Origin: a virus
Taxonomy: Duplodnaviria; Caudoviricetes
Strand: one strand, 5' to 3'
Length of the DNA stretch: 54,978 bases
IMG/VR virus record: IMGVR_UViG_3300023242_000561
Coordinates: 1-54,978 of that record
The notes under the pieces were generated by a model that had not been told where the DNA came from, did not search any database, and worked only from the letters and a program-made list of their open reading frames with translations. Positions within the stretch are counted from its first letter, which is position 1; each line of letters begins with the position of its first letter. Positions 1 through 54,978 of this stretch are shown here, one piece after another. Made by a program: the position numbers and the translations under genes.

Positions 1-78
1 CGTTTCTTTTATACCAAACGTGTGCCAAATTGAAACCCAAGATTGCTTTTTGCATCGACGCGATGGTAAATGAATGCC

Positions 79-148
79 AACGTATGTAGAACATACACCC
101 TCTTAAAGTCATAAGCTTTAAAATACAAATTTTAAAGTCACAAGAATT
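79..148 (+). repeat. 70-bp direct repeat, copy 1 (identical to 504-573), with internal GTATGT-AGA-ACATAC hairpin
   Basis: AACGTATGTAGAACATACACCCTC...CACAAGAATT reads identically at both positions. Confidence 0.97.
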
Positions 149-180
149 AAGAAATAATAATAACTTTTAAAATTAAGATT

Positions 181-252
181 ATGCCTAATCACGTAAAAAA
201 AAGATTGAAAAAATTTAGGAAAGAGATAATGTTGAATGGTGCGCTTTCTTAA
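181..252 (+). CDS. Possible 23-aa basic micro-ORF (MPNHVKKRLKKFRKEIMLNGALS)
   Basis: Hand-translated; AT-rich leader; sits between repeat copy 1 and an attC-like site, in the same position as ORF 588-710. Confidence 0.35.
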   Translation: MPNHVKKRLKKFRKEIMLNGALS

Positions 253-256
253 TTGT

Positions 257-350
257 GCCTAACGTTAAGGCTATGTTTCGTTGCCTTAAAACGAAGCTAA
301 TTATTAACTACAAATGATTATGAGCAATGAAAATATAGCCAGTGTTAGCA
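257..350 (+). other. attC-like imperfect inverted repeat 1
   Basis: GCCTAAC (257-263), arm GGCTATGTTTCGTTGC (269-284), arm GCAATGAAAATATAGCC (324-340), then AGT-GTTAGCA (341-350). The hairpin is seen; the attC reading is inference. Confidence 0.6.
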
Positions 351-505
351 AACGTTTTATTATCGAGGTATTCTTAAACGATAGAAGACTAGAATATAGA
401 GCTTCTAATAATGAAATGGATATTGATAAAGAACTGATAGAGTTAAAGAGGACTTACAAAAGTAATAACTGTGTTTTCTATAAAGGTAAACTAAATGTTT
501 GCTAA
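314..505 (+). CDS. Small hypothetical protein (cassette-like)
   Basis: 63-aa ORF; its stop TAA lies inside GCTAAC at the start of repeat copy 2. Confidence 0.65.
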   Translation: MIMSNENIASVSKRFIIEVFLNDRRLEYRASNNEMDIDKELIELKRTYKSNNCVFYKGKLNVC

Positions 506-573
506 CGTATGTAGAACATACACCCTCTTAAAGTCATAAGCTTTAAAATACAAATTTTAAAGTCACAAGAATT
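504..573 (+). repeat. 70-bp direct repeat, copy 2
   Basis: Identical to 79-148. Confidence 0.97.
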
Positions 574-587
574 TAAAAATAAATATT

Positions 588-710
588 ATGACAGAACTAG
601 AAAAACATAGAGAAACTTGGCAAGATAAAACTGAAAGCCAAACGGATAAAACACCGTATGAAGTATTAGAGCAAATTACAAAGTTGAAAGACGAAATGTA
701 TTGTGCCTAA
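588..710 (+). CDS. 40-aa hypothetical protein (MTELEKHRETWQDK...DEMYCA)
   Basis: Hand-translated; AT-rich leader (AAATATT-ATG); stop lies inside GCCTAAC. Confidence 0.55.
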   Translation: MTELEKHRETWQDKTESQTDKTPYEVLEQITKLKDEMYCA

Positions 711-901
711 CGTTAAAATGTATGGTTAGTGCCGACTAAATAAAACATAAATTATGAAAATAGAAGAACAAATTTTACAAATATTACACGACTTTGAAAC
801 ATTTAAGTTAACAAACGATGAACAAGGTGTTTACGCAAAAACAACAAGCTATATACCATTTATTGACCGAATTAAGGCATTAACTATACATAGTGTTGTT
901 G
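705..901 (+). other. attC-like imperfect inverted repeat 2, with a long loop containing the start of ORF 754-993
   Basis: GCCTAAC (705-711), arm ATGTATGGTTAGTGCC (718-733) pairing with GGCATTAACTATACAT (876-891; 14/16 Watson-Crick plus 2 G:T), then AGT-GTT (892-897). Confidence 0.65.
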
Positions 902-993
902 TGCCGAAGGGTACGTTGTGCGATTGCGGAAGTAGTGATTTTGATAAGCTAGGATTCTGCCCTTGGTGTGATACTGATGCTTATTCACATTAA
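754..993 (+). CDS. Small hypothetical protein with C-terminal CxC...CxxC zinc-ribbon-like motif
   Basis: 79 aa; LCDCGS...FCPWC; good AT-rich leader. Confidence 0.75.
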   Translation: MKIEEQILQILHDFETFKLTNDEQGVYAKTTSYIPFIDRIKALTIHSVVVPKGTLCDCGSSDFDKLGFCPWCDTDAYSH

Positions 994-1163
994 TTATAAC
1001 GGTTTAAATATGAGTAGTGGCGTGAAAAAGGGTTAACAGTAGCGTACATAAACCAGTAACCCTGCTAGTTATACAGACTAAATACACCAAGCCTTTACTG
1101 TATATGGTAGGTGAGAAAGCTGTTAGATGTACTTAGCCATTACTTATATTTATTGTTTGTTAG
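994..1163 (+). other. attC-like imperfect inverted repeat 3 (no evident ORF)
   Basis: TTATAAC (994-1000), arm AAATATGAGTAGTGGC (1006-1021) pairing with GCCATTACTTATATTT (1136-1151; 14/16 plus 2 G:T), then ATT-GTT. Confidence 0.6.
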
Positions 1164-1165
1164 CG

Positions 1166-1208
1166 TAAAAAGAGAAACCCCATCCTAATAAGAATGGGGT
1201 TATCTCTC
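1166..1208 (-). terminator. Putative intrinsic terminator
   Basis: AACCCCAT...ATGGGGTT stem; on the minus strand it is followed by TCTCTTTTT. Confidence 0.55.
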
Positions 1209-52959: not shown

Positions 52960-53198
52960 TGAGGGAATCCACATAAAGAATCGACCCCCACTTACTAAAC
53001 AGATGGAAGTACCCCCATCGAATCACAAGATTCCAGACGAATACTATAGATAAGTATAAATTAATTCAACTCTATAAGGTTAATTCAACCACATAAGGTT
53101 GAGTTAATCACTTAATGGTCAACAAGAGTTCAGACGACTCTTAAAGATAAGGATTGCAACGAAGCAATCTGTTTTTTAACTCAATAACCAATTTAATT

Positions 53199-54369: not shown

Positions 54370-54526
54370 ATTGGCTCTCTCTCTCTTCTCTTCTCTTCTG
54401 AAAACTAGAACCCACAAGATTCCAGACTATTGTCAATTACCACTAAAGTATGAACCCACAAGAGTCCAAACTCTTTCTATATTAAACGTAGTTTATATTT
54501 ATTTTTAATTTTTAAATTTTATTATT

Positions 54527-54917: not shown

Positions 54918-54954
54918 ATAACCACTAGTACTTGTTTACTAGTGGTTATGTTTT
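54918..54954 (+). terminator. Intrinsic terminator
   Basis: 13-bp perfect stem ATAACCACTAGTA/TACTAGTGGTTAT followed by GTTTT. Confidence 0.8.
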
Positions 54955-54978
54955 CTAACGCAGTTAAATTTATTAGTT

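Follow-up and report, generated by a model that had tools for sequence, protein, structure and literature searches.

Can a recombination site also be part of the coding sequence that it rearranges, so that exchange at the site would assemble new proteins in frame? This question is raised by a cluster of small open reading frames (ORFs) at positions 1-1170 of the viral record IMGVR_UViG_3300023242_000561, a linear viral contig of 54,978 bases with a completeness estimate of 31%, the whole of which was analysed and is called the window here. The cluster contains hairpins bounded by an AAC box and a GTT foot, and the original prediction, made from the letters of the window, held that two of these hairpins carry a start codon in the loop and that their GTT is an in-frame codon, at which recombination would join the N-terminal leader of one gene to the C-terminal body of another. 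In the window and its relatives, we observed a common site architecture, covariation and strand bias in the stems, a fixed reading frame at the foot, and natural exchange at both feet. As a pattern, in-frame combinatorial shuffling is supported; however, the commoner exchange takes place at the AAC foot and moves the hairpin together with its gene. With a probability of roughly 55%, we read window 1-1170 as the end of an integrase-less, integron-like cassette array (CALIN) in a crAss-like phage, where exchange is structure-guided and site-specific.

The sites were defined by our own scanner, whose pattern (YAAC, 1-9 nt, stem, loop, 1-5 nt, GTT) requires YAAC and GTT by design. Site 1 (95 nt, 256-350, plus strand) has the AAC box TGCCTAAC at 256-263, which is part of a 17-nt repeat, ATTGTGCCTAACGTTAA, at 252-268, and a non-coding 5' arm at 269-284, which forms 16 pairs with a 3' arm at 324-340 that has one bulged A and encodes SNENIA. 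Its loop (285-323) contains ATGs at 314 and 320. Site 2 (198 nt, 704-901, plus strand) repeats this design, with the same box TGCCTAAC at 704-711 inside the second copy of the plus-strand repeat (700-716; both copies stand before the 5' arms), 16 pairs between the arms at 718-733 and 876-891, a coding 3' arm (KALTIH) and ATG 754 in the loop. The start codons in the loops and the coding 3' arms are therefore as predicted. ORF1 (63 aa, 314-505, plus strand) starts at 314 or 320 and ends with a TAA inside the next AAC box, and its GTT at 344-346 is codon 11 from ATG 314 and codon 9 from ATG 320. In ORF2 (79 aa, 754-993, plus strand), the GTT foot at 895-897 is codon 48 and separates an N-module of residues 1-47 from a zinc-ribbon body. 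Both GTTs are preceded by AGT, so that the junction reads Ser-Val, again in agreement with the prediction. Site 3 (172 nt, 994-1165, plus strand) is the final one ahead of the convergent gene block and is made up of the box TTATAAC (994-1000), arms at 1005-1021 and 1136-1152, and the foot GTTAGCG (1159-1165); its loop contains only a 13-codon ORF, which crosses the GTT out of frame.

The scanner scores of sites 2 and 3 were 24.5 and 25.5, compared with 20.0 for the best of 20 whole-window shuffles, and the scanner found no further window site of this quality; all three sites lie within 1.2 kb. Hairpin 1 has an ungapped score of 15.5, which is inside the shuffle range, and its support therefore rests on the compensatory changes in its relatives (described below). 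When folded as RNA and compared with shuffled sequences, hairpin 1 reached a z of -3.04 (2/200 shuffles as good) and hairpin 2 a z of -2.33 (4/200). The plus-strand mismatches of both coding stems are G.T.

The homologues of ORF1 break at the Ser-Val junction. In the alignment, all of the homologues (19/19) are conserved from Val11 to the end with 70-95% identity, while the N-termini before Val11 belong to about ten unrelated types that differ in length and sequence. The corresponding DNA comparison comprised 11 metagenome loci (L009-L019). L010-L013, L015 and L016 resemble the window only over 341-507/511 (167-171 nt, 95.9-98.8% identity), with unrelated flanks on both sides, and the matches extend over 253-507 in L009, 324-508 in L014, 321-507 in L017 and L018, and 343-508 in L019. 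The module found in them, body A (344-506, plus strand), starts at the GTT foot, that is at Val11, and is bracketed by a 14-nt terminal inverted repeat (344-357 and 493-506; GTTAGCAAACGTTT / AAATGTTTGCTAAC), in which L019 carries a compensatory GCAAGC/GCTTGC change. Nine distinct contexts of body A were seen, which combine six types of upstream hairpin with nine different sequences downstream. For divergent pairs, the synonymous divergence (dS) is ~1 and the nonsynonymous divergence (dN) 0.03-0.09, and the low dN/dS of 0.03-0.09 implies that body A is real coding sequence. A translation start at Val11 was considered and rejected because the conserved part is without an in-frame start codon.

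For ORF2, the tally comprises 12 small homologues, namely the 11 small matches of one search and one more from another; four large proteins (800-2139 aa; P0029, P0030, P0033 and P0034) among the 15 matches were omitted because they match only repeated short Cys-rich stretches. Residues 1-48 are kept in 8/12, followed after positions 48-50 by unrelated C-termini (P0021-P0025, P0027, P0028 and P0035), and in one of these, P0025, the ORF2 N-module is fused to a DUF551 domain. The break that was expected at the Ser-Val junction is thus found in every ORF1 homologue and in two-thirds of the small ORF2 homologues. Of the other four, two (P0020 and P0026) are colinear past the junction for ~10 residues, and the remaining two are a fragment (P0031) and a protein that has another N-terminus on the same zinc ribbon (P0032). 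At the DNA level, the similarity between the window and L020 stops at 897, the last base of the GTT. We also tried GTTAACAAACG at 807 as an extra junction and rejected it, since the ORF2 homologues are colinear there. Just past the ORF2 foot, at 899-925, a degenerate 17-nt box, TTGTGCCGAAGGGTA (80%), is followed by GGTACGTTGTGCGAT; contigs of runs X1 and X2 diverge past 923, and P0020, P0022 and L021 have only a GTL-CD stretch in common. The 899-925 segment may be a second exchange point, inside the ORF2 body.

The very chimera that had been proposed, a hairpin-1 leader on a zinc ribbon, is present in L020/L021 and in a contig of run X2. A leader ending in GNDFIAD, encoded by a hairpin of the site 1 family, precedes three bodies: body A in L014, a body beginning with VSKSLPIGD in L012, and the zinc ribbon IVGTLCDVCGS... 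in L020/L021. The latter two are viral contigs whose neighbouring genes read, from their sequences, as a putative portal, a prohead protease and a capsid protein unlike those of the window. In the X2 contig, a site-1-like 3' arm is joined at window position 894 to the zinc-ribbon body of ORF2. The junction classes have only T-GTT (~4 nt) in common, which is too short for homology-driven exchange, and the joints are exact and in frame. This re-pairing of leaders and bodies at the GTT foot is the rarer event, yet a recent one, because bodies that are 98-99% identical carry three different leaders.

The usual unit of exchange, and the commoner event, is the hairpin plus the gene started in it, exchanged at the AAC foot. 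L013 and L015 are 100% identical over 983 nt and then separate at CAAC|, and L010 and L011 are 100% identical over 613 nt and then separate after TAACGGTTAG, the segment swapped between them terminating at AAC| in both. This segment contains a 70-aa ORF in L010 and, in L011 (843-1610), what we take from its motifs to be a Dam-like methyltransferase; L012 (205-798) presumably also encodes a methyltransferase, given the DPPY motif of its ORF. The pairs with a common leader (the window and L009, L010 and L011, L012 and L013) all differ downstream. In one record both ends of body A (363 and 492) are kept with non-window sequence between them, and in an X2 contig both ends of site 3 are retained, with the window letters that lie between 1034 and 1132 replaced. 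Branch points at 82, 267, 358, 590, 879-894 and 917-923 are seen in contigs of runs X1, X2, X3 and X7, which, being contigs, demonstrate the presence of these branches, not their frequency. Among 58 clustered homology ends, 42 lie near an AAC or TGTT motif, compared with 39% of random positions, which is a modest signal at most because the motif classes used loose windows; several of the ends classed as having no motif are located just upstream of a box. Finally, L014 (1-1033) has a 99-nt terminal direct overlap that closes it to a 934-bp circle of exactly three hairpin-plus-ORF cassettes, with AAC boxes at 5/939, 276 and 657. Such a contig could reflect a multi-cassette circle that was excised, a tandem array or a loop of the assembly graph.

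We surveyed the reading frame in 29 sites from the window, the relative loci and the Polaribacter phage P12002L (NC_028924), a complete genome. In general, a site has an imperfect stem of 10-22 bp, a loop of 9-305 nt, a 5' spacer of 4-6 nt and a 3' spacer of 1-4 nt; each of the three sites of the window has AAC and GTT, and in the elements listed the base that follows the GTT is A or G. Fifteen ORFs start in an element and read at least 15 codons past the foot, and in 15/15 the GTT (once ATT) is a codon, across at least 10 different bodies. The frame of the GTT is thus non-random. In most of the coding sites the start codon is located 19-39 nt past the 5' arm, and an upstream ORF of at least 23 codons ends at the TAA of the AAC box in seven sites or more. 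Roughly 12 of the 29 sites, including site 3 and one of P12002L whose loop is 9 nt, lie between genes; the ORF that follows them begins past the foot or is absent. In P12002L itself, the scanner found eight sites of this build on the gene-sense strand of the accessory region, and three annotated genes, gp37, gp41 and gp60, start in site loops; gp60 is in frame at GTT 7926 (reverse-strand numbering), where two GTTs adjoin and the first is the one counted.

The stems covary. Within the site 1 family (the window, L009, L014, L012 and L020), pairs 8-10 run TA/TA/TA, AT/AT/GT and AT/GC/GC, while 5/5 members retain both the bulged A and a G.T at each of pairs 7 and 12, and between site 2 and its homologue in L020, pairs 7-9 are changed on both sides. 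In the stems of 24 distinct elements, read on the gene-sense strand and with transitions scored symmetrically, we counted 348 Watson-Crick pairs, 56 G.T/T.G, 5 A.C/C.A and 10 others. In a palindrome acting as duplex DNA, G.T and A.C should be equally frequent, and the large excess of G.T therefore implies that it is the sense strand that folds, either as single-stranded DNA or as mRNA. The stem structure is under selection, on one strand. Strand-biased C-to-T mutation was considered as the source of the G.T excess and rejected, since 56 versus 5 is beyond the usual skews and the G.T positions are conserved.

Clusters of attC sites have been described in phages. Qi et al. (2023; PMC9892861) reported 17 attC clusters without an integrase, one of them in the virulent phage P12002L, and defined a CALIN as two or more neighbouring sites that lack an integron integrase in their vicinity. 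In the same report, the integrase IntI1 recombined 5/6 of the tested virulent-phage sites, including P12002L_attC2, with bottom strands better than top strands, and the consensus was given as RYYYAAC for the R'' box and GTTRRRY for the R' box. In the window, three scanner sites lie in 1.2 kb with no match to the integrase family PF00589, as in a CALIN. The sequence GCCTAAC at sites 1 and 2 agrees with RYYYAAC, and in hairpin 2 only weak pairing is seen between the R' box (GTTGTTG) and the R'' box. The phage sites and attC sites are alike in their inverted AAC/GTT feet, the imperfect stem with a bulged base, the very variable loop length, the co-oriented arrays between small accessory genes, the upstream stop in the AAC box, the absence of an integrase nearby, the better folding of one strand, and the putative DNA methyltransferases among the cargo (L011 and L012). 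The inner repeats are imperfect in the manner of attC sites, in that the stem sequences differ between sites and change on both sides within families, and the bulged A of the hairpin-1 family may correspond to the extrahelical G/T of canonical sites. On the other hand, the phage hairpin precedes its gene and travels with it, about half of the phage sites start a gene in the loop, with translation continuing across the 3' arm and the GTT in a single fixed frame, exchange takes place at both feet, and the spacers are asymmetric (4-6 versus 1-3 nt). The terms 'start codon' and 'in-frame' are both absent from the main text of PMC9892861. Within the sources located by our literature search, we found only short ORFs in attI/attC and accidental cassette fusions, and no recurrent design with a start in the loop and an in-frame foot. 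In the class 1 integron cases, as described in PMC8876359, short ORFs lie within attI/attC (ORF-11) and accidental fusions occur (gcuF1-blaOXA-28), so that, as here, a translation start inside a recombination site can affect the next cassette and insertion can fuse frames. Those cases are isolated or are translational-coupling aids, whereas the phage design recurs in at least 15 sites of several phages, where leader-body re-pairings are common in nature.

A second known system for comparison is the PeSL (early promoter plus stem-loop), which mediates shuffling in T4-type phages and for which mini-circles have been reported (Arbiol et al. 2010, PMC2839356; Comeau et al. 2014, PMC4122927). According to these accounts, PeSLs resemble the sites described here in being short structured motifs between small non-essential genes of a hyperplastic region, where they mark the points at which related phages swap unrelated sequence, and their mini-circles recall the 934-bp assembly of L014. 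They differ in being intergenic promoter-terminator units at which whole genes move by homology exchange, whereas the exchange point here is intragenic and in a fixed frame, with ~4 nt common to the junction classes. In addition, 2/3 window sites overlap coding sequence, and there is no promoter excess: sigma-70-like promoter matches in 1-1700 number 5 compared with 7.7 expected, which is not above chance. No T run was found 3' of the site stems in the sequence, and the sole terminator-like match inside a site (275-297) is the inner loop hairpin.

In the CALIN-like array that we favor, each site would be a single-strand hairpin made of a YAAC box, which often ends the gene before it, a stem, a loop that in about half of the sites starts the gene after it, and the GTT foot. 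Modules swap at both feet: at the AAC foot the hairpin and its gene move as one cassette, and at the GTT foot N-terminal leaders acquire other C-terminal bodies in frame, creating chimeric small proteins. Since the junction classes have ~4 bases in common and the joints are exact beside 100% identical flanks, the process appears to be site-specific, and we infer that recombination is guided by the folded strand. Canonical cassettes would give this pattern only with the genes turned around with respect to the site, so that the sense strand is the one that recombines. The sense strand would then be folded and cut at AA|C, moving the site with its downstream gene, and the opposite strand, less efficiently, would be cut where the sense strand reads G|TT, swapping leaders. 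An IntI-type enzyme or a new kind of recombinase, absent from these phage pieces, would catalyse the exchange; at G|TT, the position named in the original prediction, an integron-type enzyme may act.

Several observations weigh against this reading. No match to PF00589 was found in the complete genome of P12002L, and none to PF00589 or PF00239 in the window, although the contig is ~31% of its genome and an integrase could be located elsewhere. The scanner sites of P12002L may differ from the published attC sites. The feet GTTAGCA, GTTGTTG and GTTAGCG miss the last positions of GTTRRRY. The usual length of attC sites is roughly 57-141 nt, which includes site 1 (95 nt) and is exceeded by sites 2 and 3 (198 and 172 nt). 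A canonical cassette consists of an ORF and its downstream attC and is exchanged only at G|TT, whereas the hairpin here travels with the downstream gene. When folded as DNA, hairpin 1 was marginal compared with its shuffles (z -1.95) and hairpin 2 was no better than them (z +1.18), the latter because its two mismatches are G.T. Tolerance of G.T in 14% of the pairs, at fixed conserved positions, is the usual signature of an RNA helix. Lastly, metagenome contigs may be mis-joined across the 167-bp body, and the linkage of leader to downstream sequence is less sure than the diversity at each end.

Some of these points lead directly to the strongest competing explanation, namely that the stem-loops function in mRNA, for example by coupling translation, by controlling the start region, or in processing or stability, and that the conserved flanks TGCCTAACGTTAA, TGTTAGCAAAC and GTTTGCTAACG serve as microhomology for homologous or template-switch recombination in the manner of PeSLs, so that selection would have retained the chimeras as a by-product. 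Only the sense strand tolerates G.U-type pairs (56 versus 5), with G.T conserved at pairs 7 and 12, RNA folds beat their shuffles where the DNA fold of hairpin 2 does not, the start codon keeps its 19-39 nt distance from the 5' arm and the upstream stop sits in the AAC box in at least seven sites, and PeSL-mediated shuffling is a precedent as far as it is described in PMC2839356 and PMC4122927. Such a function would leave unexplained the ~12 sites without a gene start in the loop, among them site 3 and the 9-nt-loop site of P12002L, as well as joints that are exact and in frame with only ~4 nt in common, and boxes and spacing that are kept between unrelated phages, one crAss-like and one with different head genes. 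Moreover, PMC9892861 reports that IntI1 recombined one of the P12002L set. We regard the mRNA explanation as possible, though less likely than structure-guided exchange.

Transposition is a much less probable explanation. Here, body A and its like would be miniature transposable elements, with GTTAGCAAACGTTT / AAATGTTTGCTAAC as terminal inverted repeats, moved into TAAC/GTTA targets by a transposase encoded elsewhere, for example a single-strand transposase of the IS200/IS605 type. The 14-nt repeat exactly brackets the 163-nt body and shows a compensatory change in L019, the body is 96-99% identical amid unrelated flanks, and L016 (2849-3223, minus strand) encodes an ORF presumably similar to the C-terminus of TnpB. 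In runs from 21 studies, only about one-tenth of the words of 1-1400 are present, about the share expected of a 163-nt body; but X7, the one such run that was mapped, covers 267-358, 879-917 and 1009-1157, not the whole body. Against this, the body reads as open coding sequence under strong constraint, lacks its own start and is always inserted in frame, no consistent target-site duplication was seen, and a body-only transposon leaves unexplained why leaders and whole cassettes swap at the same feet. That the hairpins arose by chance and the chimeras by assembly, with nothing biological behind them, is scarcely credible. The original finding did comprise two sites, hairpin 1 did score within the shuffle range, and metagenome contigs are short, but sites 2 and 3 beat all 20 shuffles, 24 distinct elements show covariation, the same design is present in a complete isolate genome, the conserved boxes (10-17 nt) are below the assembly k-mer length and cannot produce mis-joins, and independent collections agree. 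Three further candidates were rejected: a 4-bp target-site duplication (GTTA) around the hairpin is inconsistent across sites, IS200/IS605-type ends do not fit because the stem joins both ends and is not made of separate end hairpins, and retron-like or RNase III-type sites have no supporting feature beyond the long helix.

The window comes from a salt-lake phage with a crAss-type major capsid protein (Pfam Crass_capsid, E 2.4e-33), which is ~26% identical at most to any capsid in the phage collection, and it also encodes a giant protein of 3749 aa. Nearly all its genes are on the minus strand; the small-ORF cluster is a short plus-strand exception that converges on a gene for an 1801-aa protein with a helicase domain, and a terminator-like hairpin (1176-1201, minus strand) is located between the two. 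At the contig start, the 3' end of an upstream small ORF (1-89, plus strand; ...VNECQRM*) is open and ends in the AAC box GCCAAC (76-81), and contigs of runs X1 and X3 follow the window over 1-82 and then depart from its sequence. Two units of the cluster have the same layout: the D1 repeat, a very short ORF, the 17-nt repeat, the 16-bp stem with a start codon in the loop, and AGT-GTT. The two plus-strand copies of D1 (91 nt, 67-157, and 492-582) are 95% identical; copy 1 starts at an AAC box, has a DNA fold z of -4.29 and is followed by a 23-codon ORF (181-251, plus strand), and copy 2 precedes a 40-aa ORF (588-710, plus strand) whose TAA is inside the AAC box of site 2. D1 holds a hairpin of 6 bp with a 3-nt loop (GTATGT-AGA-ACATAC) and an AT-rich palindrome. 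Its summed contig depth in run X1 is up to 167 compared with ~15 in the flanks (~10x), and contigs exit from it into several other sequences at 146, 160 and 590. By appearance, D1 may be a widely shared regulatory cassette, possibly PeSL-like.

A blastn search of 1-1400 against 50,697 phage records gave no match, and searching IMG/VR for exact copies of the 17-nt repeat returned 8 contigs, one match in each, which we take as chance level. Among the 24 runs listed as carrying window sequence, none is recorded as RNA. In IMG/VR, no relative was found for body A or for the C-terminal 399 aa of the 1801-aa protein. Rfam gave three matches on 1-1700, all far under the gathering scores, and PHROGs and Pfam gave a single weak PHROG match of unknown function for the five small ORFs. 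In the non-coding gap past site 3, 38 nt (1364-1401) are 84% like a segment of L013, L015 and L016 just upstream of their AAC box. At the far end of the contig, four copies of a CACAAGAKTYCAGAC-like motif (53015-53140 and 54405-54475), located upstream of plus-strand ORFs, and a 22-nt direct repeat, ACACCTTATATATAGGTATAAA, at ~54288 and ~54349 were seen by eye; both are possibly promoters or operator sites. The contig ends (54925-54978) with a terminator-like hairpin followed by an AAC-type box, TTTTCTAACG (~54951-54960), and its first bases belong to the tail of a further cassette body. These repeated elements are probably where the assembly broke.

Integron-type sites are known for reordering whole promoterless genes, whereas the phage site carries the start of a gene and its foot is a codon. 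In the published view, attC clusters in phages are mainly a route for moving bacterial cassettes, and the present data bear on that view: attC-like clusters look like a native organising principle of the phage accessory region, common to unrelated marine and saline lineages. The Polaribacter phage P12002L is a cultured system with the same design, so that the question is open to bench testing. We suggest, tentatively, that a hairpin-guided system of virulent phages of Flavobacteriia-like hosts, either integrase-free or with a new recombinase, acts as exon shuffling at the DNA level, by which the phage pool would explore combinations of small, probably host-directed, two-module proteins. If this is true, the same machinery or hot spots would also assemble new proteins from halves, as a prokaryotic-virus counterpart of exon shuffling, and would be a source of diversity for the small accessory phage proteins without known function, for which anti-defence roles are one guess.

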